From: a virus
Strand: one strand, 5' to 3'
IMG/VR virus record: IMGVR_UViG_3300022752_003639
Coordinates: 32,001 to 96,000 of that record
Length of the DNA: 64,000 nucleotides
The first letter of the stretch is position 1; each line of letters begins with the position of its first letter. Below are positions 9,261-51,104 of this stretch, piece after piece. The notes beneath the pieces were generated by a model, which was not told the DNA's origin, ran no database searches, and worked only from the letters and a program-made list of their open reading frames with translations. The position numbers and the translations under genes are program-made.

Positions 9261-9280
9261 AGACTTATAGATGAGAAAAT

Positions 9281-10325: not shown

Positions 10326-10327
10326 AT

Positions 10328-12378: not shown

Positions 12379-13021
12379 TCAAGGACTGGGCAAGGATATA
12401 GCCCAATACTTTTTACAAAATAACTTTAAGGTGATAGGACTTTCTAGAACTGTTGGCAATATTGAACATAAAAACTTTATTCATATTCCAATAGACTTGT
12501 CATGCCATGATCAGTTAGCTAAGTTGTTCAATAACTTTCCTTATCAGGTAGATTTGGTTATACATAATGCAGCAAGATTTAAACAGTCAACACTAGAAAA
12601 TCTGTCCATAGAAGAAATTTGTAATATATTAAATGTCAATATCAAATCACCTGTAATACTTACTAAACTACTTTTACCCTATATAAGTAAAAACAGTCAT
12701 ATTATCTTTATAAACAGTGTAGCAGGACTCTATAATTTAGATAATCAGTCAGTGTATTGTGCAAGTAAACACGCTCTTACATCTTTTGCCAAGATCATTG
12801 GTAAAGAATTAAGAAAAGATAAAATAAAAGTATTCAGTATTCATCCAGGAGGAATTAATACACCGTTGTGGAACGAATCTAATCCATACCCTCTTGGTGA
12901 TCATAACAAAGCATTATCAAAAACCGAAATCGTAAAAATAATAGATTTAATATTAAATTTAAATGATAATACATATGTTAGTAATATTGAAGTGTTTCCT
13001 ACAATAGAATGGCACGGATAA
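12350..13021 (+). CDS. short-chain dehydrogenase/reductase
   Basis: TGTSQGLG, HNAA, NSVAG, YCASK, IHPGG. Confidence 0.9.
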   Translation: MKTALITGTSQGLGKDIAQYFLQNNFKVIGLSRTVGNIEHKNFIHIPIDLSCHDQLAKLFNNFPYQVDLVIHNAARFKQSTLENLSIEEICNILNVNIKSPVILTKLLLPYISKNSHIIFINSVAGLYNLDNQSVYCASKHALTSFAKIIGKELRKDKIKVFSIHPGGINTPLWNESNPYPLGDHNKALSKTEIVKIIDLILNLNDNTYVSNIEVFPTIEWHG

Positions 13022-29292: not shown

Positions 29293-29781
29293 ATGTACAA
29301 AATTTTATCTTTCCCGCATCCTATTCTGTCTGAAAAAATGCCGGAATTCGATTTTGCTAATCCTATAGTAGATCCTATAGAGTTAGAAAAGAATTTAATA
29401 TCAACTATGATTACAAACAAGGGTATAGGATTATCAGCTAATCAGGTTGGGATAAAAGCCAGAGTGTTCGTCATGGGTGATTATGCTATACAGGGTGATT
29501 CCCAGGCATATTTTAATCCAAAAATTATAGATTTTGAAGAAGAAATAGAGGATTTACCTGAAGGATGCTTGAGTTTTCCGAATATTTTTGTTAAAATAAA
29601 ACGTAGTAAGTTTGTACATTGCTCTTGGCAAGATAGTAAAGGAGAATTTCAAGTAGGTACATTTACTGACTTAGGTAGTAAATGCTTTCAACACGAACTC
29701 GATCATTTAGATGGGATTGTGTTTAAAGATCGTGTGAGTCGCCTTAAATGGGACCTAGCATTAAAAAAGAAAAGGAAATAA
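29293..29781 (+). CDS. def: peptide deformylase
   Basis: GIGLSANQVG, EGCLS, QHELDHLDG. Confidence 0.93.
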   Translation: MYKILSFPHPILSEKMPEFDFANPIVDPIELEKNLISTMITNKGIGLSANQVGIKARVFVMGDYAIQGDSQAYFNPKIIDFEEEIEDLPEGCLSFPNIFVKIKRSKFVHCSWQDSKGEFQVGTFTDLGSKCFQHELDHLDGIVFKDRVSRLKWDLALKKKRK

Positions 29782-29783
29782 AA

Positions 29784-32057
29784 ATGATTTCACCAAATAA
29801 AGAACTTGAAGGAGTTTTTGAACAGGCAGTAATAAAAGCTATGAAAATGCATCATGAGTATATCACTTTAGAGCATTTTTTACATTGTTTAATTAATAGT
29901 CAAGAACTTAACAAAATTTTAACTGACTTTGGGGCAGACCTAACTAGTTTAAATAGCGATTTAGATAGATATTTAGAAGAAGAACTATCTAATATTGTCA
30001 ATCTCGAGATACAAAAACCTAGGAAAACTCAAACATTTGACAGAGTATTAAACAAAACATTTACTACAGTTCTTTTTGGCGGAAAAACTGTCATCGAACC
30101 AATAGATTGTTTACTTGCAATATTTACAGAAAAGAAAAGTTATGCTCATTATTTTCTTAAACGAGCAAAAATAGATAAAGATAAATTGATTAACTTTTTA
30201 CAAAAAGAAAATATAAAAGAAGTGGTAGAGGATGAAACAGGTGAAACAAGATTACATCCACACTTAGAAAAACTTCTAAATCAGTTTTGCGTAAATTTGA
30301 CATTAAAAGCTAAAAATAAAAAAATAGATCCTGTTATAGGAAGAGAAAAAGAAATTGAAGAAGTTCAATTAGTGTTGGCAAGACGTAATAAAAGTAACGT
30401 AATTTTAATAGGAGACCCAGGAGTAGGAAAAACTGCTATAGCAGAAGGACTTGCTAAAAATATTGTAGAAGATAATGTTCCCTCTTTTATTAAAGAACAC
30501 AGTGTCTACAGTTTAGATATTAGTTCACTACTTGCCGGTTCAAAATATAGAGGTGATTTTGAAGAAAGATTAAAAACTGTTTTAACTGCCTTAGAAAGAA
30601 AGAAAAATTGTATATTGTTCATAGATGAAGCTCATATGATGAATGGTGCAGGCGCAGCCAGCGGCAACAGCAATGATATGGCTAATATGTTAAAGCCAAT
30701 ACTAACAAAAGGAACTATTAAAGTAGTTGCTAGTACTACATGGGAAGAATTTCGTAAACATTTTGAAAAAGATCGTGCATTGATGAGACGTTTTCAACGT
30801 GTAGTAATTGATGAGCCTAGTGAGGATACTTGTATAAAAATTCTTAAAGGTGTAAAAAAATATTACGAAAAACATCACGGTGTAAAAATTACTAATCAAG
30901 CATTGTTAGATGCAGTAAGTTATTCAGTCAAGTATATTCCTGATAAAAAATTGCCAGACAAAGCATTAGACCTTATTGACTGTGCTTGTGCTCGGTTTAA
31001 GGTAAAAGACGAAGAAAACGGTGTAGTAGACCATGAGGAAATTGTTTTTGAAGTTGCTAAGATAGCAAATCTTCCTATAGAACAGGTAGGTGCTAAAGAA
31101 TCAGTAAATCTTGAAAACTTGGACAAAACACTACGTCAAAAAATCTTTGGGCAAGAAAAGGCCATAGAAAGTTTAGTTGATAAAATCTATATTAGTCAAG
31201 CAGGTCTTAAAGCAGTTGATAAACCTATTGGTAGCTTTTTGTTTGTTGGGCCAACTGGAGTAGGTAAAACTGAAACAGCAAAGCAACTAGCCACTGGGCT
31301 AGGGATTAAACTAATAAGATTTGATATGAGTGAGTTTCAAGAAAAACATTCAGTGGCTAAATTTTTAGGCAGTCCGCCAGGATATGTTGGGTTTGAAGAA
31401 AATGCAGGTCAACTTATTACCAGTCTACAAGAAAATCCTAACTGCGTACTATTGCTCGACGAGGTAGAAAAGGCACATCCCGACGTACTTAGTATCTTAT
31501 TACAACTTATGGATAATGGATTTATAACAGGCAGCAATGGTAAAAAAGCAGATGGACGTAATGCTTTAATTATTATGACTTCAAACTTAGGTGCTGCAGA
31601 TGCTGAACGCAATTCTGTAGGGTTTGGTAGTCTAGAAAGAGACGGCGACCCTAAAGATGCTGTGAACAGATTTTTTGCGCCTGAATTTAGAAACCGTTTA
31701 GATGGTATGGTAAAATTTGGAAAACTTGATAAAATTACCATGGTAAAAATTGTAAACAAATTTATAGATGATCTAAATGTATTAATTAAAGAAAAAAATA
31801 TTCATGTTAGACCTAATTTAGCTGCGACTGATTTCTTAATCGCCAAAGGGTTTAATTCAAAAATGGGAGCTAGACCTTTGTCACGAGCTATTGACGAACA
31901 TATCAAGAAACCCCTTAGTAAAGAAATTCTTTTCGGAAAACTTAATAACGGCGGGCTTGTAGAATTAGATATTATAGATGATAAAATTGTATTCAATATA
32001 TTAGATATAATGCCTGTAAAAACTAAAAAACAAAGCGTTACAACGGAAATTGAATAA
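29784..32057 (+). CDS. clpA: ATP-dependent Clp protease ATPase subunit (ClpA-like)
   Basis: Clp-N domain; two AAA+ modules GDPGVGKT and GPTGVGKT; LFIDEAH; MGARPL; no ClpB middle coil. Confidence 0.9.
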   Translation: MISPNKELEGVFEQAVIKAMKMHHEYITLEHFLHCLINSQELNKILTDFGADLTSLNSDLDRYLEEELSNIVNLEIQKPRKTQTFDRVLNKTFTTVLFGGKTVIEPIDCLLAIFTEKKSYAHYFLKRAKIDKDKLINFLQKENIKEVVEDETGETRLHPHLEKLLNQFCVNLTLKAKNKKIDPVIGREKEIEEVQLVLARRNKSNVILIGDPGVGKTAIAEGLAKNIVEDNVPSFIKEHSVYSLDISSLLAGSKYRGDFEERLKTVLTALERKKNCILFIDEAHMMNGAGAASGNSNDMANMLKPILTKGTIKVVASTTWEEFRKHFEKDRALMRRFQRVVIDEPSEDTCIKILKGVKKYYEKHHGVKITNQALLDAVSYSVKYIPDKKLPDKALDLIDCACARFKVKDEENGVVDHEEIVFEVAKIANLPIEQVGAKESVNLENLDKTLRQKIFGQEKAIESLVDKIYISQAGLKAVDKPIGSFLFVGPTGVGKTETAKQLATGLGIKLIRFDMSEFQEKHSVAKFLGSPPGYVGFEENAGQLITSLQENPNCVLLLDEVEKAHPDVLSILLQLMDNGFITGSNGKKADGRNALIIMTSNLGAADAERNSVGFGSLERDGDPKDAVNRFFAPEFRNRLDGMVKFGKLDKITMVKIVNKFIDDLNVLIKEKNIHVRPNLAATDFLIAKGFNSKMGARPLSRAIDEHIKKPLSKEILFGKLNNGGLVELDIIDDKIVFNILDIMPVKTKKQSVTTEIE

Positions 32058-35980: not shown

Positions 35981-36472
35981 ATGAGAATAATAGATATTTT
36001 AACAGAAGATAACAATTTAAGAACCGGCGATGTTCTAGCTATAGAATGTGATAATGGACTACTTATTGAATCTACCATAGTAGGATTTATGAACGACGGC
36101 GTAGTAATACAAGGAGACTCTGTTATTCTTTCTTATCTAAAATATGAACCTTTTAATGAATCTATCACAAAGTTTACCAGTATGGAACTGGCAGTTATGG
36201 AAGGCGGTGGTGATATTAGTGACTTATCTGAAGCAGAATATCAAGGTCGTAATGTCCCTTTAGGTAAGCCTATGGCGGGAGATGTCAAAAAGTCTAAAGT
36301 CTATGTTAAGGGACCAAGTGGTAGGGTAGTCAAGGTAAATTTCGGCGACAAGAAAATGAAAATTAAAAAGTCTAATCCAAAACGCCGAAAGAGTTTTAGA
36401 GCTCGTCATAATTGCAAAAATCCCGGACCACGTTGGAAAGCACGTTATTGGTCATGTAGGGCATGGGAATAA
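35981..36472 (+). CDS. two-part putative head-internal protein (acidic N-half, basic C-domain)
   Basis: MRIIDILTE N-terminus; EAEYQGR ... RKSFRARHNC ... ARYWSC; TAAATA at 35955-60. Confidence 0.75.
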   Translation: MRIIDILTEDNNLRTGDVLAIECDNGLLIESTIVGFMNDGVVIQGDSVILSYLKYEPFNESITKFTSMELAVMEGGGDISDLSEAEYQGRNVPLGKPMAGDVKKSKVYVKGPSGRVVKVNFGDKKMKIKKSNPKRRKSFRARHNCKNPGPRWKARYWSCRAWE

Positions 36473-36475
36473 ATC

Positions 36476-36832
36476 ATGTTACTTAACGAATTTTTTAATA
36501 ATCCTATAAATTTACATAGAAAAGAAAACCACGAATCGTCTACATATAAAGATGATTTGTTTCATTATATTTTAGATCATGACAAGCTGCATAAAGATTA
36601 TTTTTTTCCAATTGCAAAAAAATTAAAACATTTAAAAGAAAACACAGATAAAAAAATAATAGAAATTTTTATGCCTATGGTTATTAAGGGCTGTAAAGAA
36701 TATTATCATAATCAAAAAATGGAGGGTAGATTAAGTAAATTATTTCCTCAAGAAATGAGAGAGGAGCTTTGTCAACGTCTATACGATCACTACTATGAAG
36801 ACGTTCGTGCGGGCAAATATAGGCTGGGGTGA
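36476..36832 (+). CDS. hypothetical protein
   Basis: MLLNEFF N-terminus; 118 aa. Confidence 0.75.
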   Translation: MLLNEFFNNPINLHRKENHESSTYKDDLFHYILDHDKLHKDYFFPIAKKLKHLKENTDKKIIEIFMPMVIKGCKEYYHNQKMEGRLSKLFPQEMREELCQRLYDHYYEDVRAGKYRLG

Positions 36833-37722
36833 TTATGTTTCTAGCAGAAGGTGGCAATGAATTTAAACTTGCAGATGGTAGCAATGCCACTAAACAGTCA
36901 GCGTCTACGGAAGAAGTAGATGCAGTCTTAGGTGCATTGAGCAAAGAAATAGGCATAGACTTACTGGCCAACGATCTAGAAAACAAACCTAAATATAAAA
37001 CAGGCAGTGCTATATATCCTGGTGCAGAAACAGGTGACGCAGACACACTGTTAGATCCTGTAGAATTTATACCTGTAGATAAAGGTGCCAAACCTAAAGA
37101 TGTGCAGAATCAATTTAGAGAATTTTTAGCCAAAAAACTACAGACAGCAGGTTATGAATTTCTTGAAAAGAAAGCCACAGTAGACCAACCAGGAAGATTC
37201 TATAAGATATCCGGAGATGGACTCACAGCCTGTGTGCAAATACCAGGCACAGAAGAATGGCTACAAGTAGACCTGGACATAGCAGAACCTGGAGAAGGTA
37301 AGTTTTCAGTATGGAGCAAACGTGGTGAACCTAATGAACCTGGCACACCAAAAGACAGTCGTGCCAAAGGTGCCTTTCGTCATATTCTGCTAGCGGCCAT
37401 AGGTAGTAAGTTAATCAGTCCAGAACATCCACAGGGCCTTAGTTGGAGTTTTAAGAATGGCCTATTTGACCGTGCTACCAAACAGGTAGTTAGCAAAGAT
37501 CCTAATGAAGTAGCCAATATCCTATTCGGTGGCAAGGCCAGCGATCTAGACAACATTAATGCCATACTGGCTAAATTTAAACAGACACATCCTAATCACT
37601 ATAATGATGTTGTACAAAATGTCAATGCTGGACTGGAAAAATATAACACACAGTATAGACTAAAAGAAAGTCATGCTGTGGGCACACCTCAATGGTTTAG
37701 GATCGTCCTGGATCTAATATGA
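36829..37722 (+). CDS. Pol-beta-fold nucleotidyltransferase-like protein
   Basis: KTGS ... TGDAD (hGS...DxD) plus third Asp in LQVDL. Confidence 0.55.
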   Translation: MIMFLAEGGNEFKLADGSNATKQSASTEEVDAVLGALSKEIGIDLLANDLENKPKYKTGSAIYPGAETGDADTLLDPVEFIPVDKGAKPKDVQNQFREFLAKKLQTAGYEFLEKKATVDQPGRFYKISGDGLTACVQIPGTEEWLQVDLDIAEPGEGKFSVWSKRGEPNEPGTPKDSRAKGAFRHILLAAIGSKLISPEHPQGLSWSFKNGLFDRATKQVVSKDPNEVANILFGGKASDLDNINAILAKFKQTHPNHYNDVVQNVNAGLEKYNTQYRLKESHAVGTPQWFRIVLDLI

Positions 37723-38849
37723 GAATTAGGGAACTACTAGAAGCGGCAGCAGTTGGTCGCAAATATCAACACATAGAAGACCTTGTGTTTACCAATGGTA
37801 GTCAAGGTGGACTTCATGCCGCAGAACGCCTGCGCAGCATGGCATCAACTGGTGGCACTGTTGAAATTAAGTGGGACGGTAGCCCTGTTGTCTACTGGGG
37901 GCGTGATGAACAAGGTCGCTTTTCAATGATTCCTAAAAATGCCTGGGAATATCTCAAGCGTGGCAAATCAGAAGTTGCCCCAGGTGTTCCTACTGCGATG
38001 TATAGTCCAGATGACATTAAAAAGTTTGTGTTGGGCACAGGCAAAGTAGAACCCGGTCAAGAAAAACAGCGACAGGCCTTTGCCAACAGCATGGCAGAAT
38101 TATGGCCCTACTTTGAAAAAGCCAGTCCACCTCGAGGTTATGTAGAAGGTGGTATACTGTTCAGTCCAGAAAAACCTGCTCAACTAAATTCTAAAACTAT
38201 GGAGTATGACTTTACTCCAAACATTACCAGCTTCCATATTCATAAAGACAGTGAGCTAGGACAGCGTATTTCCAAGGCCAAACTTATGGTAGCTGTTACA
38301 GGTTATTATGATAGTCTAGGCAGTTCAGATGAAGGACGTTTTCCAGATGCAGAAAAACTATCTACACCAGACGTAATTGTTCAAGGCACTACCTATGTGG
38401 CACAGGCACCTGGCATAGATGATACATTAGTAGATCAAGCAGAAGGTTTTATTGAAAAGAACGGTCAACGCATAGATCAATTCCTAGCACCCAAACCAGG
38501 ATTAAGTAAGGTAGGTGATATACTTTACAAATTCTATAACCAAAATCTGCGCATAGAAGGAACAAAACAAAAGTTTAAGGCTTGGGCAGCACAAAATCTC
38601 AGCCAATCGCAAGCTGCAAAGGTTCTAAACGATCCTGGTCTAGAAACTGTGCTAGATGCTGTAGAGTTATTGAGCAAGGCTAAAACAGATCTAATCACTA
38701 AACTAAGTTCAGGAACACATGCAGGTATTAGACAGACTAAACCAGAAGGTTATGTTCAAGCACATCCAGGTGGCAAATTCAAGAGTGATCTACCTGGGCA
38801 ATTTGTCAAGGCCATAGATCAAGCAACATGGGCACCAAGGAAAGACTAA
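37719..38849 (+). CDS. ATP-grasp RNA-ligase-like covalent nucleotidyltransferase (DUF6267-like)
   Basis: Motif I EIKWDG (37869-80), YVEGGIL, motif IV KPEGYV, motif V FVK. Confidence 0.55.
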   Translation: MRIRELLEAAAVGRKYQHIEDLVFTNGSQGGLHAAERLRSMASTGGTVEIKWDGSPVVYWGRDEQGRFSMIPKNAWEYLKRGKSEVAPGVPTAMYSPDDIKKFVLGTGKVEPGQEKQRQAFANSMAELWPYFEKASPPRGYVEGGILFSPEKPAQLNSKTMEYDFTPNITSFHIHKDSELGQRISKAKLMVAVTGYYDSLGSSDEGRFPDAEKLSTPDVIVQGTTYVAQAPGIDDTLVDQAEGFIEKNGQRIDQFLAPKPGLSKVGDILYKFYNQNLRIEGTKQKFKAWAAQNLSQSQAAKVLNDPGLETVLDAVELLSKAKTDLITKLSSGTHAGIRQTKPEGYVQAHPGGKFKSDLPGQFVKAIDQATWAPRKD

Positions 38850-38850
38850 T

Positions 38851-41010
38851 ATGTTATTAAGACAATTATTTGAAAATACGTCAACACCTAAAACCGCAGT
38901 GTTAGGATGGGGTAGAGGTATGGGACACAAAGGTCATATGCTATTGGCCAAAGCTGTACTGCATCATGCTCAAGAAAATCAAGCTAAACCTTTCTTTGTG
39001 GTCAGTAGAACTAGTCTAGTAGATCCTAGCACAGGTCAACCCTGGGCAGATAAACCCACATTTACCAAGACCAAAGATGATCCTCTTACACCAGACGAAA
39101 AACTCAATACTTATCGCAAGGTATTCCCACAAAATGCAGAAGTATTCAGTGTGGCCACGGCAGATGCTACTAAGTTAGAACAGGTCATGGCAAAAATTGC
39201 CCGTGAAGGATTTAATAAAGTCATATTGGTTGTAGGTGAAGACCAAAAAGACTCAATGGGATATCTAACTCGTCCTGCTAAATCAACAGGCGTTCCACCA
39301 TATAAAGAAGCAGGAATAGATCAATTAGAAATTATCAGTAGGCAAGATACTACAGAACCCAGCAGTATGAGAGGCAGTCCAGAATATCAAGAAGGACCTA
39401 GAGCCACACCTATGCGGCAGGTCCTAATGGATCCCTCAAAGAGTGAACAAGAACAATTTGCCATATGGCGCAGAGACATGCCAGATAATTTAAGTGATGA
39501 AGAAGTCATGGATCTCATGCTCAAGGCTAAACAGCGTATGAGCATGGTTCCTGCTGGTAAGCGTGGCGTAAAAGAACGTATGCTACCACCTAGCACATTT
39601 GCAGGCTATCCAAAAAACAAACTTGGCGCTGCTGCTCATTTAAAAGGTAAAATGAAAAGACCTGCCAGAGCAGGTGATCTTGTAGGTGATGCTCAAGAAA
39701 GTATAGAAGAAGATTCATACAAAATTGCCCCCGGAGATAATTTATCCACTTTGGCTAAGAAATTTGGCACAACGGTAGATGCTCTAATGAAGGCCAATCC
39801 ACAAATAAAAGATGCTAATCGTATACAAGCAGGCGCTACACTAAATGTTCCTAGTCAAGGCAGTGATCCTAAAGGTTCAGTAAGATCCGGTCCTAACACA
39901 AATATCAGGCCAGATACAAGAGCAAGAGCACAGGCACAGGTAGCACCTTTAGACAAACCTAAAGCATCAATACCGCAAAAGTCTAATGCCTTACAAGAAC
40001 CTGGATTCATGGAAAAACTAAAACAGGTTGCAGACAATCTACAGATTAACGCAAATGATTTATTAGGTGTAATGAAACATGAATCACGTATGAATCCAGC
40101 AGCAGTGAATCAGCAATCAGGTGCTACAGGACTAATACAGTTTATGCCACGCACAGCGCAGAGTCTAGGAACTTCAACAGACGAACTCCGCACCATGAGT
40201 GCATTAGACCAATTAGATTATGTAGAGCGTTATTTTAAACCTATAGCAGGCAAGGCCAAAGACATAGGTGACCTATATATGTTTACATTCATGCCGGCAG
40301 CAGTGGGCAAACCAGATGACTTTGTAATTGGTGTAAAGAATGGTGACAAACCTTTGTTTGGTCTGAACCAAGGAAAATTATATGCTCAAAATTCAGTATT
40401 CGACAAAGATAAAAAAGGATATTATACTGTAGGTGATATCAAATCTCGTGTATCTGGATTTGCTGAAGGTGTAGAAGAAGGTTGGAAATCTAAACTAGCA
40501 GGACTTGGATTAGCGGCTGCTGCGGCTATGGCGCCAGGTAAATCAGATGCTAGAGTAAACATAGATGACCCAGATAGTTATCGTGCTCCGGCTCCTATAG
40601 CACAGCAACAAAAAATAGACTACACAGCACCCGGTCCTGTTACAAAAGACAGCATGGGACAGAAATTAGAGTATGGTATTCCTGTTACTCCAGACGGCAA
40701 ATTTAAGGCACCTAGTCAAGATTTACCAGACGACGAATATGCTCAACAGTTAAAAGCCTATAAGACATGGAAAGCAGACTTTATGTCTAGGTGGCCTGAC
40801 GCAGTATGGAATAGTGATGGTAGTGCGAAATCTAATATGAAACCAGGTCTAGCACCTATGGCGCCAGGATATAAACCGGGCAGTGGACAAGGACTAGCAC
40901 CTGTATTTCCGGGTGCGGTTAAAGAAGATAAATTTGTACCACTCAGTGAGGATGTAGCCAGTATCTACAAGAGTTTATTAGACACAATTTTAATTAACGA
41001 ACAAAAATAA
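38851..41010 (+). CDS. multidomain protein: HxGH nucleotidyltransferase-like domain, LysM, lytic transglycosylase (SLT)
   Basis: GRGMGHKGH, VVGED, RATPMR; LysM YKIAPGDNLSTLAKKFG (about 39718-39852); SLT HESRMNP, GATGLIQFMP. Confidence 0.8.
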   Translation: MLLRQLFENTSTPKTAVLGWGRGMGHKGHMLLAKAVLHHAQENQAKPFFVVSRTSLVDPSTGQPWADKPTFTKTKDDPLTPDEKLNTYRKVFPQNAEVFSVATADATKLEQVMAKIAREGFNKVILVVGEDQKDSMGYLTRPAKSTGVPPYKEAGIDQLEIISRQDTTEPSSMRGSPEYQEGPRATPMRQVLMDPSKSEQEQFAIWRRDMPDNLSDEEVMDLMLKAKQRMSMVPAGKRGVKERMLPPSTFAGYPKNKLGAAAHLKGKMKRPARAGDLVGDAQESIEEDSYKIAPGDNLSTLAKKFGTTVDALMKANPQIKDANRIQAGATLNVPSQGSDPKGSVRSGPNTNIRPDTRARAQAQVAPLDKPKASIPQKSNALQEPGFMEKLKQVADNLQINANDLLGVMKHESRMNPAAVNQQSGATGLIQFMPRTAQSLGTSTDELRTMSALDQLDYVERYFKPIAGKAKDIGDLYMFTFMPAAVGKPDDFVIGVKNGDKPLFGLNQGKLYAQNSVFDKDKKGYYTVGDIKSRVSGFAEGVEEGWKSKLAGLGLAAAAAMAPGKSDARVNIDDPDSYRAPAPIAQQQKIDYTAPGPVTKDSMGQKLEYGIPVTPDGKFKAPSQDLPDDEYAQQLKAYKTWKADFMSRWPDAVWNSDGSAKSNMKPGLAPMAPGYKPGSGQGLAPVFPGAVKEDKFVPLSEDVASIYKSLLDTILINEQK

Positions 41011-41020
41011 ATATATTATT

Positions 41021-41458
41021 ATGAAACAACTAATAGAAATAGCTAAAATTGCTTTTGCCAGTGAATTCAGTTTTTACTTAAAAGCACACCAATTTCATTG
41101 GAACGTAGAGGGTGAAGATTTCTTACAATATCACGACTTATTCGGTAAAATTTATGAAGAAGTATATGGAAGTATAGATGATTTTGCAGAAAAAATTCGC
41201 AGCTTAGGGTCTTACATGCCAGGCAGTTATACACGTTACAGTATGTTGAGTAAAATAGAAGATGAAGATCAAATACTTCCTAAAGATCAAATGGTATCTG
41301 AACTTATGAAAGATAACGAACGAATGTTAATTATTTTCAAACAGGTGTTCGATGCCAGTGAAGCTGAACATGAACATGGATTTAGTGATTTTATAGCAGG
41401 ACGTATGGACGCTCATCGTAAACATGGATGGATGTTAAGAGCATCAATGAAAAGATGA
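41021..41458 (+). CDS. dps: Dps/ferritin-like DNA protection protein
   Basis: KAHQFHWNVEG, HDLFGKIYEE, DDFAEKIR, HRKHGWML; TAAATA at 41008-13. Confidence 0.9.
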   Translation: MKQLIEIAKIAFASEFSFYLKAHQFHWNVEGEDFLQYHDLFGKIYEEVYGSIDDFAEKIRSLGSYMPGSYTRYSMLSKIEDEDQILPKDQMVSELMKDNERMLIIFKQVFDASEAEHEHGFSDFIAGRMDAHRKHGWMLRASMKR

Positions 41459-41796
41459 GAGCTAAAGAATTTATAAACGAAGATAAAGAAAAGAAAATTC
41501 GTATGGCATCGAGATTATCTCTACCATATGCGCTAAGATTAGATGGATCTGATCAATATTATGATTTTTACAGATTAGGATTGGCCATGGCAGGAGCTCC
41601 TGAAGACGGAACTCCGAAAGAAGGTCCAGCCAAAGATTCCCCTACTATTTGGCCATATTCCGATGCAGATGCACAAAAGGTAGAAAAAGCACTTAAAAAT
41701 CAAGGTGCGACCGGTAAGGTAATTATAAAAAAAGGTAAGAGTGAAGAACTGCCTTCAACAAACACAGTTAGCCCCGTAGCACAATGGATGAGATAA
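41455..41796 (+). CDS. putative head-internal protein (paralogue A)
   Basis: MRAKEFINE start, ATGA-coupled; ends TNTVSPVAQW. Confidence 0.75.
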   Translation: MRAKEFINEDKEKKIRMASRLSLPYALRLDGSDQYYDFYRLGLAMAGAPEDGTPKEGPAKDSPTIWPYSDADAQKVEKALKNQGATGKVIIKKGKSEELPSTNTVSPVAQWMR

Positions 41797-42176
41797 TGAG
41801 AGCAAAGGAATTTTTGCAGGAAAGATCTGCTAAAACACATGGTAAATTTACAAGTTTATCAGCAGACGCAGATGCGGCACTTCCTGGTGTATGGGTACAA
41901 AGACAATTAAGAAATACTGATCCATATATGCAATATAGATATGCACTTGCTGTGGCAGCAGCAAGGGCAGATAAAAGTGGTGAAATAGAATTTAAACAAG
42001 AAAGTCCATGGGCTGAAAATTTAACCATAGTAGGATATACTCCAGAAGATGCAGATGTTGTTTCCATGGCAGATAAATTAATGGGAGTCAAAGGTACACG
42101 TATTGCTGATGATAAAAGTAAAGAACCTAAAGATACAAACACCGTAAGCCCTATACCAAATTGGAATAAATCATGA
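41796..42176 (+). CDS. putative head-internal protein (paralogue B)
   Basis: MRAKEFLQE start, TAATG-coupled; ends TNTVSPIPNW. Confidence 0.75.
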   Translation: MRAKEFLQERSAKTHGKFTSLSADADAALPGVWVQRQLRNTDPYMQYRYALAVAAARADKSGEIEFKQESPWAENLTIVGYTPEDADVVSMADKLMGVKGTRIADDKSKEPKDTNTVSPIPNWNKS

Positions 42177-44974
42177 GCGAATATAAGAAAATAACTACAC
42201 CCACTTTAACTCGTTTCGTTCTAGAAACTATGACCGCAGGTGCCACAGGTTCTGCAAATATTGCCACATCGATGGGCACTATAGGCAAGACTATCAAGCG
42301 TCAACAAGAAGCCAAAGATGACAAGGTGCCTCAAAAGCCACGTCAAGGTCCCCTACGCCCACAGACAGGTGCAGGCGCACACAAAGATAAAAAGCGAGAT
42401 CAAAAACAGGGCAAAGAAAAACATCGCAAGCCTTTCTATGAGCAACATACAGATCATGAAGTGGAAATGGCGCAGAGTGATACATACCAGTTGGCCAAAC
42501 AGGCTGCAGAACTACATAAAATTCTAATGCGTGCCAGTGAAGAGCAGGGTCTAGAAGGTTGGCAACAGGCTAAGATCACAAAGGCAGCAGACTATATCAA
42601 TGCTGTCTACAAAAATCTCAATCACGATGTAGACATGGACGGTCATATTGGTGAGCAAGCTCTATCAGAATTAGAAAAACCCAGCGGAACACTTTATATA
42701 ATATTATTAAGAGACAGAACAGAATCTGTTCGTGTAGTAGGAGACTTTGGGACATTTCCAGCAGAAGTGCAGGCCCGTGCCAGCAAGGTAGGTATTAAGG
42801 ATAAAGAAGGTCGCAAAGAGCGTCCTCTAAAAGTTAATTTTCTAATGACTAGTGCCAGCCAGGCTCTAGCAGAATTAGACAAAGCACTAGCAGATGTAGA
42901 TTTTATCGGCGGAGAAAAGGCCGAGTTCGTATTTAAAAATTCTGCTTTTGAAACAGACATAGAAGATGAGGTGAGGGAACTAAATGATCTAATTCGAAGT
43001 GGTGCGGACGAAAGATTTAAGAACTATGAAGAACCAGAAGTAGGTTCCGAACCAGAGACCAAACCTAAAGGTGTAGATCATTTTGTTGTTGGTCCAGATG
43101 GCAAGCGTCGTCGTGTGCCTATACCAGGAAAGCCAAGTAGTCAAATGGGAGGTCATGCTGTAGAACAACCTAAAACATTTACCTACCAACTTAAGAAAAC
43201 AGAACTAGGTCCTAAACTACGCTCAATGGGCTTTAAGGTAGATGGTAGTCAAATTGTATTGAGCAAACAACAGCGTGATCAATTACTGGCAAAAATGGGT
43301 GATCAACAGTTCGGACAGATATTCGGCCAGGGTGGTAAGTTCACAGAAGGTGGCTATGACGATCAGTTTAGCCTCGGAGGCAGACTAGAAAGAGACGACG
43401 ATTTTCGCAATAGAGAACGCAATGCTGGAGTTGAACATGAAAGAAATAACTACCAGGTAAGCATAAATGGTAGGCCTTGGAAAGTGTTTGCCGATCAAAG
43501 GCAAGCTATGAATATTGCTAGAAGTCTTAAAATGAAAGGCAAAGAAGTAGAAGTTTATCCTACAGGAGCTAGGCCCTCAGAAAGCGTGGGAGAGGCAGTG
43601 AAGAAACCTAATGCTACTACTCGTCATTTAAGAGATTATCCAGTTAGTGATAAGGACGTGGCCAAGCCTGTTAAGAAACCTGAAAAGAAAAAACCAGAGC
43701 AAGGTGTGGCGGAAATGGACAAGAGCCAACCCAGCCACGGTCGTGATGGTAAGATTAGCCACAGCACCTATGGTTCAAGAGATAAAGAAGGTTCTGACTA
43801 TTTCAAAGGTAAGGAAGTTTCTGTTAAGCCTATTACCGTAAAGAAGATGGAAAAAGACGCACTTGATATTCTCAAGAAGCAAGGTGTGGCGGAAGGCTCA
43901 TTGGAAACTGACAATATGGTATCACATATTAGTCAGGTAATACAAAGCATTTATCCACGCGGTGGTGATAAAAATACATATATGAAACTGGTAGCCCGAG
44001 AAATGCCACGTATAGTGAAAGCCAATCCTAAACTATTCAGAAGAGCATTCGGTATGGCATATGATAGATTCTTTCATATAGACCAAGACGACGATCAAGA
44101 TGACGATTTTGATTATACTGATCATAGTATGCGTAAGGGTGAGCGTGGTATGGCGGAAGTCAGAGGCAATATTGATGCTGATCAAGCAGGATTTTATGTT
44201 GTCGACGAGGACGGAAACGCAGTTTCTGGTCCATTTGCTTCTAAACAAGAAGCATACGAACGAGCAGCCGAAATGGGTCGTATGTATGATGTAAAATATA
44301 AAGGTGATATAATACCTTTAGATTCGTTAATTAGTAAAATAATAAAGACACTACCACCAGATGTAACAAGTGATGATCTTCAGGACCCAATGGATCTTGA
44401 GCAACAATTAGAAATACTAAGAAGTCCATTAGTAAAAGTATTTTCTAAATTATCACCTTACGAACAAGCCGAAGTCACAGACGAAGTAGCGAATTATTTT
44501 TATGACAGAAGATTTGGTGATTTAGATGAAGGAAAGATCAAAGGTGTGGACGGTAAAGCCTGCTGGAAAGGCAAGCGTTATGCTGGCAAGGTCAAGAAAG
44601 CAGATGGCACCTACAAAGACAAATGTGTAGAGGATGTAGTAGAAGCACTAGAAGAAGTTAAAAAAGGTCTTTACTACTATGTGAACAAGCGTAAGAAGGC
44701 AGGCACCAGTAGACCAGCCAGCCATCCAGATGCTCCAAGTCCACAAGACTGGAAGAACGCTGCCAAGACTGCTAAGAAAGAAGATACCTATTCAGAAAGT
44801 CTGTTGAATCAACTGGATGCACTGTTAAATGAAAAGGCACCTCCAGGTGACAAGTATGAGCGTATGGTCAAGCATATTAAAAAAGGCTATAGCAAAGACG
44901 GCAAAATTACAGACAAAGAACGCAGCATCGCATATGCTACAGCATGGAAGGCTAAAAACAAGGCAAAAAAGTAA
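42173..44974 (+). CDS. large modular putative head-internal polyprotein
   Basis: 933 aa; many short charged modules bounded by Glu sites (GVAE, GMAE, LDE, LNE). Confidence 0.75.
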   Translation: MSEYKKITTPTLTRFVLETMTAGATGSANIATSMGTIGKTIKRQQEAKDDKVPQKPRQGPLRPQTGAGAHKDKKRDQKQGKEKHRKPFYEQHTDHEVEMAQSDTYQLAKQAAELHKILMRASEEQGLEGWQQAKITKAADYINAVYKNLNHDVDMDGHIGEQALSELEKPSGTLYIILLRDRTESVRVVGDFGTFPAEVQARASKVGIKDKEGRKERPLKVNFLMTSASQALAELDKALADVDFIGGEKAEFVFKNSAFETDIEDEVRELNDLIRSGADERFKNYEEPEVGSEPETKPKGVDHFVVGPDGKRRRVPIPGKPSSQMGGHAVEQPKTFTYQLKKTELGPKLRSMGFKVDGSQIVLSKQQRDQLLAKMGDQQFGQIFGQGGKFTEGGYDDQFSLGGRLERDDDFRNRERNAGVEHERNNYQVSINGRPWKVFADQRQAMNIARSLKMKGKEVEVYPTGARPSESVGEAVKKPNATTRHLRDYPVSDKDVAKPVKKPEKKKPEQGVAEMDKSQPSHGRDGKISHSTYGSRDKEGSDYFKGKEVSVKPITVKKMEKDALDILKKQGVAEGSLETDNMVSHISQVIQSIYPRGGDKNTYMKLVAREMPRIVKANPKLFRRAFGMAYDRFFHIDQDDDQDDDFDYTDHSMRKGERGMAEVRGNIDADQAGFYVVDEDGNAVSGPFASKQEAYERAAEMGRMYDVKYKGDIIPLDSLISKIIKTLPPDVTSDDLQDPMDLEQQLEILRSPLVKVFSKLSPYEQAEVTDEVANYFYDRRFGDLDEGKIKGVDGKACWKGKRYAGKVKKADGTYKDKCVEDVVEALEEVKKGLYYYVNKRKKAGTSRPASHPDAPSPQDWKNAAKTAKKEDTYSESLLNQLDALLNEKAPPGDKYERMVKHIKKGYSKDGKITDKERSIAYATAWKAKNKAKK
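43698..44158 (+). repeat. dispersed direct repeat AGCAAGGTGTGGCGGAA encoding QGVAE
   Basis: Exact 17-mer at 43698-43714 and 43878-43894; variant GGTATGGCGGAA at 44147-44158. Confidence 0.85.
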
Positions 44975-46567: not shown

Positions 46568-46664
46568 TTGGATTAAAAAAATTATTGCCGACTATCGTAG
46601 GCGTAGGCAAATAAAGAAACGTATAGAAGAGCTTAAAAAGCGAGATCCGTTTATCTACAAATGA
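46560..46664 (+). CDS. 34-aa basic peptide
   Basis: Read manually: MFNWIKKIIADYRRRRQIKKRIEELKKRDPFIYK, coupled to the next gene. Confidence 0.65.
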   Translation: MFNWIKKIIADYRRRRQIKKRIEELKKRDPFIYK

Positions 46665-48133
46665 TTATTTGGGGAATAAGTGCTAACAGTCACGATGCTG
46701 CCTTGTCTGTGTGGCATGACAAAACAATACAATTTGCTGCTCATAGTGAACGGTATAGCAAGATTAAAAATGACGGCGATCTACATCCCAAACTTATCGC
46801 AGAAGCAAAACAGTATGGCGAGCCAGATCTTGTTGTCTGGTATGAAAATCCTTTACTAAAAACATTTAGGCAATTTACAGCAGGCCAAGGATGGAACTGG
46901 TCTGAGAACAATATAAGACAATATCTTAAACGCTATGACATACACAGTCATGTACACATAGGTTCACATCATCACAGTCACGCCGCTGCCGGTTTTTATA
47001 CCAGTAAGTTTAATGATGCAACAGTCATCTGTATAGACAGCATCGGTGAATATGAAACGCTGACAATTTGGCGAGGTATAGGTAACAATCTCAATAAGTG
47101 GTATACGCAGGGTTATCCTCACAGCATAGGTCTTTGGTATAGCGCAATGACTCAAAGGATAGGCCTCAAGCCCAATGAAGAAGAATATATCCTAATGGGA
47201 ATGGCAGCATATGGCAACCCAGAAAGATTATATCATGTTATTCTAGAAGATTTTTTTAAGAGCACAAAGGCTCCTGGAATAAAGTTTAAGAATAATTTGC
47301 ATAGAGGCTGCAAATGGTGGCGCCCTGATTTAGTTTCCGAACAGGATATGTTCGATATAGCAGCGGCTACCCAGGCAGTATACGCTGACCTATTACGATC
47401 TATTACACAGTATGCAAGAAAAGTATTACCAAGCAGAAATCTAGTGTTAATGGGCGGATGTGCCTTAAACTGTTCTGCCAATAGTCTAATTACTGCCGAC
47501 TGGGATAATGTATGGATAATGCCTAATCCGGGAGATGCAGGCAGTTCCATAGGTAGTGTATGCAGTTATTTTCAAGAAAAAATCTCATGGCCAGGTCCAT
47601 ATCTAGGCACAGACATGGGAGGTCCTTATCCTGTTGAGGAAACTATCAATGTTCTTAGATCTAGAAAAATTGTGGGTATGGCTAATGGTAGAGCCGAGTT
47701 TGGGCCTCGTGCCCTTGGACATAGAAGTTTACTGGCGGATCCGAGGGGAAATGATATTAAAGATAGTGTGAATGAAATTAAACGCAGACAAAAATTTAGA
47801 CCGTTTGCACCTGCTATATTAGAAGAACATGCGGCCGATTATTTTATCATGCCCCAAAATATATCATCCAGTCCTTACATGCAATTTGTAGCAAAATGTA
47901 GACATCCTGATCTGTTTCCTGCTATAATTCATGCAGATGGTACAAGTAGAGTTCAAACAGTTGGAAAAAATGACAGCCCTGGATTTAGGTCTCTACTAGA
48001 AAAATGGTTTGAAGAAACAGGATGTCCTATGTTACTAAACACTAGCCTTAATATAAAAGGACAACCAATTGTAAATGACGAAATTGATGCGTTAGCATTC
48101 GAAGAAAGGTATAATGTTAAAGTTTTTACGTAG
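46661..48133 (+). CDS. carbamoyltransferase (NodU/CmcH family)
   Basis: HDAA, SERYSKIKND, HHHSHAAA, GGCALNC, PGDAGSS, EFGPRALGHRS, RPFAP, DGTSRVQTV, LNTSLN. Confidence 0.92.
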   Translation: MIIWGISANSHDAALSVWHDKTIQFAAHSERYSKIKNDGDLHPKLIAEAKQYGEPDLVVWYENPLLKTFRQFTAGQGWNWSENNIRQYLKRYDIHSHVHIGSHHHSHAAAGFYTSKFNDATVICIDSIGEYETLTIWRGIGNNLNKWYTQGYPHSIGLWYSAMTQRIGLKPNEEEYILMGMAAYGNPERLYHVILEDFFKSTKAPGIKFKNNLHRGCKWWRPDLVSEQDMFDIAAATQAVYADLLRSITQYARKVLPSRNLVLMGGCALNCSANSLITADWDNVWIMPNPGDAGSSIGSVCSYFQEKISWPGPYLGTDMGGPYPVEETINVLRSRKIVGMANGRAEFGPRALGHRSLLADPRGNDIKDSVNEIKRRQKFRPFAPAILEEHAADYFIMPQNISSSPYMQFVAKCRHPDLFPAIIHADGTSRVQTVGKNDSPGFRSLLEKWFEETGCPMLLNTSLNIKGQPIVNDEIDALAFEERYNVKVFT

Positions 48134-48356
48134 TTTAACATGGCTGTTCTGGTTTGAGTGGTCTTGCACTATAATTTTATTGGCAGGAGTTATTTTAACT
48201 AGTTTTAATATATATCCTACAAATATATGGTTTTTATTAATAGGAAACCTTGGCTGGATCGCCCTAGGATATATATGGCGTAAATGGAGTTTAATTATTT
48301 TACAAGTTATAATAACACTAATCTATATTGCCGGATTAGTAAAGACTTTACTATAA
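48114..48356 (+). CDS. small three-TM membrane protein (PnuC-like half unit, tentative)
   Basis: EWSCTIILLAG, GNLGWI, hydrophobic throughout. Confidence 0.6.
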   Translation: MLKFLRSLTWLFWFEWSCTIILLAGVILTSFNIYPTNIWFLLIGNLGWIALGYIWRKWSLIILQVIITLIYIAGLVKTLL

Positions 48357-48426
48357 ATAAATTTGAGTAAGGTTCGCGAGCCATAAATCGCATAAGTGGT
48401 TGTCCAGCCTTAAGTGGAACAAGGAG
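48352..48426 (+). promoter_or_regulatory. TATAAATA late-type promoter and twin hairpins ahead of the polymerase SD
   Basis: TATAAATA 48352-59; GCGA-GCCATAAA-TCGC (48376-91); TCCA-GCCTTAAG-TGGA (48403-18); SD AAGGAG 48421-26. Confidence 0.6.
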
Positions 48427-48431
48427 AAATT

Positions 48432-51104
48432 ATGAGTTATGTAGATGCCATCTGGGATCGTGATAATGATATTATCAAAGTTGTTGAACGTGATCCTAAA
48501 AAGGGTCGCTTATTTCAAGAATACCCTGCAAGATATATATTTTACTACCCGGATTCAAAAGGTAAGTATAAATCAATTTACGGTGATAATCTTTCTAGAG
48601 TATTAACCAAATCATTTAAAGACTTTCAAAAAGAACAAAGAATACATAATAGTCATAGACTATTTGAAAGTGACATAAACCCCATATTTAGAACACTAGA
48701 AGAAAATTATTTAGGTAAAGAAGAACCTAGACTAAATGTAGCATTTTTTGACATCGAAGTCGATTTTGATCCAGAAAGAGGATACGCTAGTCCAGACGAT
48801 CCCTTTATGCCTATCACAGCTATTACAGTAAACCTACAGTGGTTAAATGTTTTAATAACATTGGCTATCCCTCCAAAAAGTCTTACATTAGAAGAGGCAA
48901 AAGAACAGGTAAAAGATTTTCCAAATACACACTTATTTGAATCTGAAGGAGAAATGTTAGAAACATTCTTAGAATTATTAGATGATGTAGATGTATTGAG
49001 TGGATGGAATTCAGAAGGCTATGATATTCCCTATACAGTAAACAGAGTAACTAAAGTATTAAGTAAAGAAGATACTAGAAGATTTTGTTTATGGGATCAA
49101 TTTCCTAAAAAAAGAGAATACGAAAAATACGGCAAGACCGCCGTGACATATGATCTTATAGGTCGAGTACATTTGGATTCTTTAGAGCTTTATAGAAAAT
49201 ATACCTATGAAGAACGTCACACTTTTAGATTAGATGCTATAGGTGAAATTGAAATTGGAGAAAATAAAACAGTTTACGAAGGAACACTTGACCAATTATA
49301 TAATAACGACTTTCGTAAATTTATAGAATACAACAGACAAGACGTTGCTTTATTAGACAAATTAGACCGAAAACTTAAATTTATCGACCTTGCCAATAAA
49401 ATTGCTCATGAAAACACAGTATTATTACAGACTACTCTAGGAGCTGTAGCAGTAACCGAGCAAGCAATTATTAATGAAGCACATCATCGAGGTATGATGG
49501 TTCCTAGTAGAGCTAAACGCGATGAGCTAGGTGATACAGGAGCAGCGGGCGCATATGTAGCCTACCCTAAAAAAGGACTTCATGAATGGATCGGAAGCAT
49601 TGACATCAATAGTCTATATCCAAGTGTAATTCGTGCATTAAACATGGGACCGGAGACCATTGTAGGTCAACTACGCCCAGAAAAAACTGAAAAATATATA
49701 AACGAACAAATATCTATACATAAAAAAACATTCGCAGGGGCCTGGGAAGGAATGTTTGGAACGCTAGAATACGAAGCAGTAATTAAAAAAGATAGAGCAT
49801 TTGAAATTGTTATAGATTGGGAAAACAACGAAACCAGTGTGTTATCTGCGGCAGAGGTACATAATTTAATTTTTGAAAGTAATAACCATTGGATGCTCAG
49901 TGCAAATGGAACTATTTTTACCTATGAAAAAGAAGGCATAATTCCTGGCCTACTGAAACGATGGTATGCTGAACGTAAAGAATTACAAGGAAAATTAAAA
50001 TTAGCTAAAGATGCGGAAAATATTATAGAAGAAGAGTATTGGGACAAGAGACAATTAGTTAAAAAGATTAATCTTAATAGCTTGTACGGCGCTATTTTAA
50101 ATCCAGGATGTAGATTTTTTGACAAGCGTATAGGTCAATCAACAACATTAACAGGTAGATCTATAGCAAAACACATGGCAGGAACAGTAAATGAAATTGT
50201 AACAGGTGAGTTTGATCATGTAGGGAAAGCTATAATCTATGGTGATACAGACAGTTGTTACTTCAGTGCATACTCTACATTAAAAAGAGATATCGAAAAA
50301 GGACAAGTACCTTGGAATAAAGATATTATAATTCAACTTTATAATCAAATCGCAGATAAAGTAAATCAAACATTCCCAGAATTTATGCTTGCAGCATTTC
50401 ATTGTCCCAAATCTAGAGGAGATGTTATTAAAGGGGGCAGAGAAATTGTTGCAAGCAAAGGTTTGTTTATCACTAAAAAACGCTATGCAGTTCTATATTA
50501 TGATAAGGACGGAAAACGCACAGACGTAGACGGAAAAACTGGCAAAATTAAAGCTATGGGCTTAGACTTAAAAAGAAGTGACACTCCTGAATTTATGCAA
50601 AAATTCCTAGAAGAAATTCTTGGCAAAGTTCTACACGGCGAACAAGAAAAAGAAATTTTAGATAGAATTAGTGAATTTCGAACAGAATTCAAAGCTCGCC
50701 CAGGTTGGGAAAAAGGTTCGCCTAAACGTGCTAATAATATTACAGAATACGAAGCTAAAGAAAAGAAAGCAGGCAAGGCTAATATGCCGGGACATGTACG
50801 TGCAAGCATAAATTGGAATACTTTACGAAGAATGAATGGAGACAAATATTCCATGCAAATTGTTGATGGTATGAAAGTTATAGTTTGTAAAGTAAAAGAC
50901 AATCCATTAGGATTTACCAGCGTGGCCTATCCTACAGACGAATTACGGTTACCAAAATGGTTTCAAGAATTACCATTCGACCATTCAGAAATGGAAACAA
51001 CAATCATTAACAATAAATTAGACAATCTCATCGGTGTTCTAGAATGGGATTTAGAAAGCACTACACAGGATAATACTTTTGGCAAGTTATTTTCTTTTGA
51101 ATGA
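48432..51104 (+). CDS. family B DNA polymerase with 3'-5' exonuclease
   Basis: FFDIEVD, GWNSEGYDIPY, YNRQDV, SIDINSLYPS, KINLNSLYG, YGDTDS, KKRY. Confidence 0.96.
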   Translation: MSYVDAIWDRDNDIIKVVERDPKKGRLFQEYPARYIFYYPDSKGKYKSIYGDNLSRVLTKSFKDFQKEQRIHNSHRLFESDINPIFRTLEENYLGKEEPRLNVAFFDIEVDFDPERGYASPDDPFMPITAITVNLQWLNVLITLAIPPKSLTLEEAKEQVKDFPNTHLFESEGEMLETFLELLDDVDVLSGWNSEGYDIPYTVNRVTKVLSKEDTRRFCLWDQFPKKREYEKYGKTAVTYDLIGRVHLDSLELYRKYTYEERHTFRLDAIGEIEIGENKTVYEGTLDQLYNNDFRKFIEYNRQDVALLDKLDRKLKFIDLANKIAHENTVLLQTTLGAVAVTEQAIINEAHHRGMMVPSRAKRDELGDTGAAGAYVAYPKKGLHEWIGSIDINSLYPSVIRALNMGPETIVGQLRPEKTEKYINEQISIHKKTFAGAWEGMFGTLEYEAVIKKDRAFEIVIDWENNETSVLSAAEVHNLIFESNNHWMLSANGTIFTYEKEGIIPGLLKRWYAERKELQGKLKLAKDAENIIEEEYWDKRQLVKKINLNSLYGAILNPGCRFFDKRIGQSTTLTGRSIAKHMAGTVNEIVTGEFDHVGKAIIYGDTDSCYFSAYSTLKRDIEKGQVPWNKDIIIQLYNQIADKVNQTFPEFMLAAFHCPKSRGDVIKGGREIVASKGLFITKKRYAVLYYDKDGKRTDVDGKTGKIKAMGLDLKRSDTPEFMQKFLEEILGKVLHGEQEKEILDRISEFRTEFKARPGWEKGSPKRANNITEYEAKEKKAGKANMPGHVRASINWNTLRRMNGDKYSMQIVDGMKVIVCKVKDNPLGFTSVAYPTDELRLPKWFQELPFDHSEMETTIINNKLDNLIGVLEWDLESTTQDNTFGKLFSFE

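Follow-up and report, generated by a model that had tools for sequence, protein, structure and literature searches.

The DNA analysed here, called the window below, is a stretch of 64,000 nucleotides (positions 32,001 to 96,000 of the IMG/VR virus record IMGVR_UViG_3300022752_003639) in which three adjacent genes, p1, p2 and p3, encode enzymes that all appear to adopt nucleotidyl-transfer folds. The source is a giant T4-related phage that has not been cultured; its record has a length of 138,457 bp and a CheckV completeness of 35%, and the phage genome should therefore measure roughly 0.4 Mb. The genes are tightly packed open reading frames (ORFs) on the same (+) strand: the start of p2 overlaps p1 by ATGA and p3 begins 2 nt past the p2 stop. 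An original prediction, made from the letters of the sequence, had proposed them as a possible injected kit for RNA repair or nucleotide signalling. Their parts, in window coordinates and with p3N designating the N-terminal domain of p3, are the following.

36835..37722, + strand: p1, predicted minimal family-X-polymerase-like nucleotidyltransferase, 295 aa from the ATG (alternative GTG at 36829)
37719..38849, + strand: p2, DUF6267 putative ligase-fold covalent nucleotidyltransferase, 376 aa (PF19782 and predicted fold)
37719..37742, + strand: p2 leader MRIRELLE, similar to a capsid-targeting sequence (CTS) and ending in L-L-E; predicted mature N-terminus AAAVGRKYQH
38851..41010, + strand: whole p3 ORF, composed of p3N, LysM, transglycosylase (SLT) and tail
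38851..39555, + strand: p3N, residues 1-235, HIGH-motif cytidylyltransferase-like domain (phrog_3041 and invariant motifs)
38851-38874, + strand: p3 leader MLLRQLFE, recognised by its leader type
39718..39852, + strand: LysM domain, p3 residues 290-334 (Pfam PF01476, 2.2e-12)
39988..40455, + strand: lytic transglycosylase (SLT)/baseplate-hub-lysozyme-like domain, p3 residues 380-535 (PF01464, 2.3e-9; phrog_196, 2.8e-32; phrog_13530, 2.1e-36)
ending at 41010, + strand: unassigned Pro/Ala-rich p3 tail, residues 536-719

Folds and motifs of the three enzymes

The p1 ORF had been read from its GTG (MIMFLAE), a start which is probably two codons too early, as the database copies of the protein are 295 aa long and begin at the ATG at 36835 (MFLAE). 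The ORF itself and the motif set recognised in it, GS...GDxD...D of the Pol-beta type, were confirmed: G59-S60, D70-x-D72 and D148 (297-aa numbering) are invariant in 29 homologues, and the aspartates of DxD and QVD remain so in p1-like proteins at 19-27% identity, where the alignment is divergent. The 75 homologues of p1 are metagenomic and 0 of them have a Pfam domain. Searches with p1 itself returned 0 Pol X families from Pfam at E-values up to 10, nothing from NCBIfam, no Pfam match to the RNA-ligase-associated nucleotidyltransferase RlaP (PF10127) and nothing from PDB sequences, whether by phmmer or by hmmsearch with the family profile.

The AlphaFold (AF2) model computed from the alignment is confident (pLDDT 93.1, pTM 0.87). 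Its best 50 Foldseek matches in the PDB are all Pol mu, beta or lambda (E from 4e-4, TM about 0.40-0.44). VIA-align, a structural comparison against 48,161 chains whose method is independent of Foldseek, placed family-X polymerases in all of its top 9 rows, with Z-scores of 7.9-10.2: the palm-thumb of Pol beta (3k75_D, Z 10.2 over 176 aa), TdT (Z 9.8; the entries 6go3 and 4rpx both have this score), Pol X from African swine fever virus (ASFV; 5hr9, Z 9.6, with 164/176 ASFV residues aligned) and Thermus PolX (Z 9.0 at 20% identity; 3au2 also 9.0). After a gap, the next tier (Z <=6.8) consists of TUTases and CD-NTases, whose alignments are limited to the palm (about 95 aa); CD-NTases do not exceed 6.4 over about 95-105 residues, and the CCA-adding enzyme of A. 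fulgidus reaches 4.9. The Pol-beta assignment of the original prediction thus held, but the CCA-adding enzyme and CD-NTase it had entertained are less likely identities for p1, their scores being well under those of the Pol X rows, and because p1 resembles Pol X rather than either of them, the signalling-nucleotide and CCA-repair options are weakened. The 8-kDa dRP-lyase and HhH DNA-binding domains occur in Pol beta and lambda and not in ASFV Pol X. Neither is present in p1, in which about 25 residues precede the palm and residues 13-247 align to the Pol beta palm-thumb. On its predicted structure, p1 is a member of the Pol-beta superfamily and specifically a minimal Pol X-like enzyme made of palm and thumb.

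This type of polymerase seems confined to uncultured lineages, because no p1-like gene was detected in cultured phages: tblastn with p1 gave 0 matches there, a p1-p2 fusion query matched via its p2 part alone, and the cyanophage ORF upstream of DUF6267 has no detectable likeness to p1. A recent review of the DNA polymerases of phages (PMC8775771) does not list family X among them.

The second protein belongs to Pfam family DUF6267 (PF19782; 64.3 bits for a cut-off of 27), for which an exhaustive search collected 424 cluster representatives and on which no paper was found in the literature searched. In 58 proteins of the family, down to 23% identity, the residues H18, K51, D53, G54, G61, K322, E343, G344 and K364 are invariant. 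They comprise the KWDG, EG and K motifs that had been noticed in p2, with the lysine correctly numbered as Lys51: K51-W-D53-G54 is motif I (KxDG), and E343-G344 and K364, candidate counterparts of ligase motifs IV and V, lie close to the C-terminus. The AF2 model (pLDDT 94.9) includes a helical insert (about residues 235-330) that sets EG and K apart from the early motifs, has no OB domain and ends about 12 residues past K364. Ligases dominate its Foldseek list with weak E-values of at least 0.02, and VIA-align returned polynucleotide ligases only, in the top 14 rows of the wide comparison and the top 50 of a second look (Z 4.9-6.6 over 159-202 residues). Naegleria Rnl5 comes first (Z 6.5-6.6 over 179 aa), followed by REL1 (6.0), Trl1 (5.9) and T4 Rnl1 (5.5), and DNA ligases score 5.0-5.4. 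Z-scores under 8 would not convince alone, but the invariant lysine motif together with a uniform list of ligases leads us to accept a ligase-type nucleotidyltransferase domain as the predicted fold of p2.

Sequence comparison brought p2 close to no described ligase. Against ATP-dependent DNA ligases there is no PF01068 match and no C-terminal OB domain or motif VI, and against RNA-ligase families (PF09414) Pfam and NCBIfam gave 0 matches. Aligning the DUF6267 profile by hhalign to T4 gp30 (probability 0.2%), Rnl1 and Rnl2 (probability <1%) was a weak test, made with single-sequence templates, and does not count as evidence against the fold. No meaningful match came from PDB sequences when p1, p2, p3N or the profiles of their families served as queries. 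The nearest structural relatives of p2 are the OB-less RNA ligases (Naegleria Rnl5, T. brucei REL1, T4 Rnl1/Rnl2 and fungal Trl1; Z 5.0-6.6 over 160-200 residues), with which it has in common KxDG and the lack of a motif-VI OB domain. It differs from them by the absence of a sequence match, by the helical insert of about 95 residues and by an invariant N-terminal H-x-E-D, a motif which to our knowledge does not occur in those families.

These matches bear on whether the module serves RNA. As an RNA repair kit, injected or not, it would work through p2 resealing RNA, tRNA included, after cleavage by defence nucleases of the host and p1 repairing or tailing RNA 3' ends, with p3N in support; T4 offers a precedent in Pnkp and Rnl1. 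Besides the rank of RNA ligases in VIA-align and the missing OB domain, this account is favoured by the first annotated matches of p2 outside its own family in BFVD, which are phage RNA ligases, and by a weak lead in the ESM Atlas to a PF09414 cluster (0.76). However, the Z gap between RNA and DNA ligases is below 1.5, p1 clearly resembles DNA polymerases X more than it does CCA-adding or RNA-tailing enzymes and lacks the RlaP match, and no kinase, phosphatase or cyclic-phosphodiesterase was detected with Pfam and PHROGs in the conserved block, of which several ORFs are unannotated. The undetected activities include the healing kinase or phosphatase that the repair of tRNA ends put forward in the original prediction would call for, and we regard an RNA kit as unlikely.

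In p3, the HxGH (HKGH) motif that had been pointed out is part of a longer signature, G-W-G-R-G-M-G-H26-K-G28-H29, in which GWGRGMGH-x-GH is invariant in 25 homologues. So is a second motif, G182-P-R-A-T186-P-M-R189, whose likeness to ISSTxxR was judged by eye, without a structure. Such family-wide invariance puts the motifs of p1, p2 and p3N well beyond chance. p3N matches the PHROG family 'cytidyltransferase' (phrog_3041, 8.6e-9), and 28 of its 30 ESM Atlas matches form one viral PF01467 cluster set, 2 more being PF01467 + PF08218 (score 0.94). The window protein stays below the Pfam threshold for PF01467 and has no NCBIfam match, only 1/25 homologues matches PF01467 (E 0.064), and there was no match to the NadD/NadR/NadM equivalogs of NCBIfam. 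The link to annotated enzymes comes from a hidden Markov model (HMM) of p3N, which matches, with E-values of 2e-16 to 5e-24, the cytidylyltransferases of phages S-WAM1, S-RSM4, S-SZBM1 and Melnitz. Two of the three cyanophage homologues tested pass the PF01467 cut-off of 21 (30.4 and 35.6 bits; S-RSM4, 19.4), and these homologues match NadD/NadR models at 1.3e-5 to 1e-3, far under the cut-offs (TIGR00482, 25 bits for a required 112). To judge from its motifs and relatives, p3N is a HIGH-motif, PF01467-type, NMNAT-like nucleotidyltransferase. The cyanophage 'cytidylyltransferase' (S-SZBM1_140, S-CREM2 ORF154), which the literature classes among auxiliary metabolic genes with an unclear function, is its homologue, has the same type of leader and has been detected in virion proteomes; the window p3 differs in being under the PF01467 threshold and in carrying LysM and SLT.

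The weak NadD and NadR matches of the cyanophage homologues favour a role in counter-defence, in which p3N would be an NMNAT restoring NAD+ after Thoeris- or SIR2-type depletion while p1 and p2 produce or break down a nucleotide signal. Phages are also known to have pathways that reconstitute NAD+ (cited in PMC12801897). Against this role, neither Nampt nor another partner of such a pathway lies in the block, p1 has the likeness of PolX and not of a CD-NTase, and the tight fusion of ligase and polymerase folds would be left unexplained. We consider this role very unlikely.

In 80 related loci, which are IMG/VR loci collected via p2, the tails following p3N are very variable, from almost none to about 1000 aa, and LysM/SLT is essentially absent from the p3N homologues (one tblastn match and a few weak phmmer matches, E 5e-8 to 5e-4). 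The tail of LysM and transglycosylase appears essentially to be an addition specific to the clade of the window.

Linkage, leaders and packaging

The co-occurrence of the three genes and the nucleotidyltransferase-type folds, both of which the original prediction required, are supported. In the related loci, p3N is directly downstream of p2 in 76/80 and a p1-like gene, identified by profile, is directly upstream of p2 in 71/80, about 30 of the latter sharing one open frame with p2. Fusions are repeated and take several forms: 150 DUF6267 representatives at 50% identity include 27 p1-p2, 4 p2-p1, 13 p2-p3N and 2 p1-p2-p3N proteins (P0323, P0413), and S-PM2 has a p2-cytidylyltransferase fusion. 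The models of p1 and p2 and the family matches of p3N all correspond to nucleotidyl-transfer folds. The p2-p3N pair also occurs in cultured T4-like cyanophages and in Melnitz, beside gp41, MazG and uvsX. Searching cellular genomes (one genome per prokaryote species) found a single 4-kb contig of a metagenome-assembled genome, which is probably phage. The three genes constitute a single enzyme module that giant T4-related phages have conserved. The DUF6267 enzyme, a Pol X-like enzyme in a phage, the three-way module and its capsid-type leaders appear not to have been described in the literature searched.

In the cultured T4-like Methylophilales phage Melnitz (L094:4694-7035), a small ORF starting MKKFSELTSELIE is located between DUF6267 and a 650-aa p3N-type protein (start MKKFSEIIE).

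Both p2 and p3N start with a leader resembling the T4 capsid-targeting sequence (MRxRELLxE type), and p1 starts with M-F-L-A-E/GGN, an LxE site (the slash marks the position following the glutamate). Several neighbours, on the same strand, carry leaders as well or recur with the module:

35981..36832, + strand: two small upstream genes with leaders MRIIDILTE and MLLNEFFNN, recognised by leader type; the second is syntenic in 32/80 loci
41021..41458, + strand: Dps/ferritin-like DNA-binding protein within the block (PF00210, 9.5e-17; phrog_3636, 2.4e-27), syntenic in 28/80 loci
41455-41796 and 41796-42176, + strand: two paralogous small proteins with leader starts MRAKEFINE and MRAKEFLQE and a common ending TNTVSPxxxW
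42173-44974, + strand: 933-aa charged modular protein, with a module (32-46 residues, at 788-832) in common with cyanophage proteins

The pattern M-[RLK..]-x-[RKN..]-[EQD]-[LFIV]-[LFIV] matches the starts of 7 ORFs across the 138-kb record, and 6 of these fall in 35981-41796; 20 shuffles gave 0 matches. It was built from these genes and defined post hoc, and conservation in the families therefore weighs more: among 119 p2 homologues 75% have the leader, and among 120 p3N homologues 62%, compared with 4/124 ORFs in the whole record. A [LIV]xE tripeptide occurs at residues 4-14 in 91% of the 119 p2 homologues, and p1 domains begin with [LI]-x-E/GGN in 17/18 aligned sequences. The junction of fused p1-p2 proteins retains [LIV]xE/AAAPxVGRKYQH, in which the part following the glutamate corresponds to the sequence remaining when MRIRELLE is removed from free p2. 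The leader as a signal at the DNA level was rejected, since synonymous positions differ and the peptide is conserved.

The parallel is with the internal proteins of T4 and with Alt, which likewise have a short leader ending in [LI]xE: MRAKEFINE, MRIRELLE, MLLRQLFE, MRAKEFLQE and MRIIDILTE in the window are of the same type as MKTYQEFIAE, encoded twice in the T4 genome, and MELITELFDE, with which Alt starts. As in that cargo, the module proteins are unrelated to one another and have the leader alone in common; here, by contrast, the cargo would be nucleic-acid enzymes, some of them encoded as polyproteins. In T4, the site of gp21 cleavage follows L/I-X-E, and head loading requires no more of IPIII than its first ten residues (PMC9026906). 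Two related records bearing the module have a Peptidase_S77 (gp21-type) protease (1.9e-28 and 1.2e-26) adjoining a gp23-type capsid gene.

Virion proteomics of cyanophages points in the same direction. The proteome of S-SZBM1 (PMC9146016) includes the p3N homologue S-SZBM1_140 (start MRFRQFIIE), whose gene is directly downstream of DUF6267 and which matches the p3N HMM with an E-value of 3e-18, as well as its downstream neighbour _139. The module of the 933-aa protein of the window is common to S-WAM1 and S-RSM4 proteins encoded just downstream of the cytidylyltransferase, and the S-SZBM1 gene at that position is _139. The cytidylyltransferase of S-CREM2, ORF154, was also detected in the virion proteome (PMC10665884). 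With leaders, cleavage-type sites, a protease in relatives and a homologue seen in virion proteomes, we think it probable, with moderate confidence, that the module proteins are packaged in the virion; the packaging proposed at the outset is plausible, with the qualification that p1 has only a minimal start.

The opposite position is that the enzymes are not cargo but work in the cytoplasm in replication and repair, DUF6267 being the DNA ligase for nick sealing that Kyanoviridae-type phages are missing and the leader serving assembly or regulation. Four complete DUF6267 genomes (S-WAM1, S-RSM4, S-SZBM1 and Melnitz) are without a PF01068 ligase, and the two tested are also without PF01653; gp30 is listed as core for non-cyanophage T4 relatives only (PMC5349666; PMC2993671); and 469 phage records, most of them from cyanomyoviruses, contain DUF6267, adjoining gp41, MazG and uvsX. 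Yet the window genes sit in a leader-bearing block which includes a transglycosylase fusion, the leader and [LIV]xE are kept across three unrelated families and at fusion junctions, and the partner enzyme, the p3N homologue, is found in virion proteomes. A purely cytoplasmic role is for these reasons improbable in our view, and it is partly compatible with the packaged kit that we prefer, as packaging would not keep the ligase from working at a later stage of infection too.

A proposed fill-and-seal repair kit

The classic design for filling and sealing combines a Pol X fold with a ligase fold, and the module is read here as a repair system. The function that we propose, while giving it slightly less than an even chance, is that of an injected fill-and-seal kit acting mainly on DNA. 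According to this scenario, p2 and p3 would be made with a short N-terminal leader acting like the T4 capsid-targeting sequence, and p1 with its minimal LxE start alone. The three proteins would be loaded into the prohead core, trimmed after [LIV]-x-Glu by a gp21-type protease, which would also separate the fused forms, and injected along with the DNA. The polymerase would then fill gaps and the ligase seal nicks, most likely in the incoming phage DNA and ahead of any phage gene expression, the damage having been picked up outside the cell or inflicted by nicking host nucleases. Because p3N is constantly fused to the ligase, we would guess that it makes or recycles a nucleotide cofactor which the ligase needs. 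LysM and a lytic transglycosylase on p3N would be expected of an ejected virion protein crossing the cell wall.

Two viral systems provide the closest comparisons. The Pol X and DNA ligase of ASFV form a minimal base excision repair (BER) pair, in which the polymerase is, like p1, reduced to palm and thumb and has, as in the module, a ligase-fold partner. It differs by the lack of detectable sequence similarity; moreover, p2 is a DUF6267 protein with no OB or DNA-binding domain, the module has a third enzyme (the HIGH nucleotidyltransferase), no AP endonuclease is present in the block and the host is bacterial. In Phaeocystis globosa virus 16T, PgVPolX unites polymerase X and ligase in one polypeptide, as many p1-p2 fusions do, but its ligase is of the LigA type and its Pol X has the dRP-lyase, whereas the phage proteins have DUF6267, no 8-kDa domain and leaders similar to those for capsid targeting. 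The fusion of Pol X with an NAD+-dependent DNA ligase from PgV-16T was shown to fill and seal BER intermediates, and the ASFV pair is also known (PMC5537341). That DNA would be the main substrate is further favoured by the context, with the Dps-like gene in the block and a UV-damage endonuclease, UvdE, at 13082-14110, and by the four complete genomes without a PF01068 ligase described above.

Several observations weigh against an injected kit for DNA. The structural matches of p2 are modest, with Z below 8, and RNA ligases (Rnl5 6.5, REL1 6.0) are slightly above DNA ligases (about 5.2), within the range of a tie; typically it is RNA ligases, and not DNA ligases, that lack an OB domain. The start of the window p1 has only 5 residues, MFLAE. 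No gp21 was found in the 138-kb record of the window itself, which is a fragment (CheckV 35%), and in cyanophages the p2-p3N pair is beside replication genes (gp41, MazG, uvsX). Concerning the proteomes, DUF6267 is not among the 30 proteins reported for the S-SZBM1 virion (PMC9146016), and the authors of the S-CREM2 study call such detections frequent and possibly a carry-over of abundant non-virion proteins (PMC10665884).

A more integrated version of the fill-and-seal kit can be imagined, although we hold it to be quite unlikely: a self-sufficient, chemically coupled machine delivered by the virion, in which the Pol X-like enzyme would fill, DUF6267 would seal with NAD+ (or another dinucleotide) and not with free ATP, and the fused NMNAT-like enzyme would regenerate the cofactor from the by-product of the ligase.

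Window context and implications

Other genes of the window, all on the + strand, belong to proteolysis, metabolism and DNA repair:

1285-3258, + strand: subtilase (PF00082, 5e-37)
5328-5912, + strand: ClpP (PF00574, 1e-76)
7144-13021, + strand: metabolic gene run with an FAD oxidoreductase, an NAD-dependent epimerase/dehydratase and a 3-dehydroquinate-synthase-like enzyme
13082-14110, + strand: UV-damage endonuclease UvdE (Pfam PF03851, 1.3e-36)
29748-32057, + strand: Lon-like ATP-dependent protease (phrog_4871, 1.5e-246)
46661-48133, + strand: carbamoyltransferase

The metabolic run may be a sugar or cyclitol pathway. UvdE is a nicking enzyme whose products need fill-and-seal repair. Scanning the block for promoters and terminators did no better than in shuffles. 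The T4 late-promoter core TATAAATA has 1 copy in the 64 kb (48352-48359, +), where shuffles predict about 12, and is no marker of the block; this copy is just upstream of a family-B DNA polymerase gene (48414-51104).

Hundreds of cyanophages in culture encode DUF6267, as do many aquatic phages that are uncultured. If the coupled machine were true, damaged phage DNA could be repaired within the first seconds after infection, also in cells depleted of NAD+ or energy, and DUF6267 would constitute a new class of polynucleotide ligases, the long-missing ligase of the cyanomyoviruses. If the fill-and-seal kit itself is as we propose, T4-related phages of lakes and oceans would carry a ready polymerase-ligase kit in the capsid, and the ligase that cyanomyoviruses appear to lack could be identified; the family would also supply biochemistry with compact scaffolds, an OB-less ligase and a minimal polymerase. 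The cargo principle known from T4 (Alt, IPI*) would then extend from anti-restriction proteins to nucleic-acid repair enzymes, and this would suggest how virions damaged by sunlight keep their infectivity.

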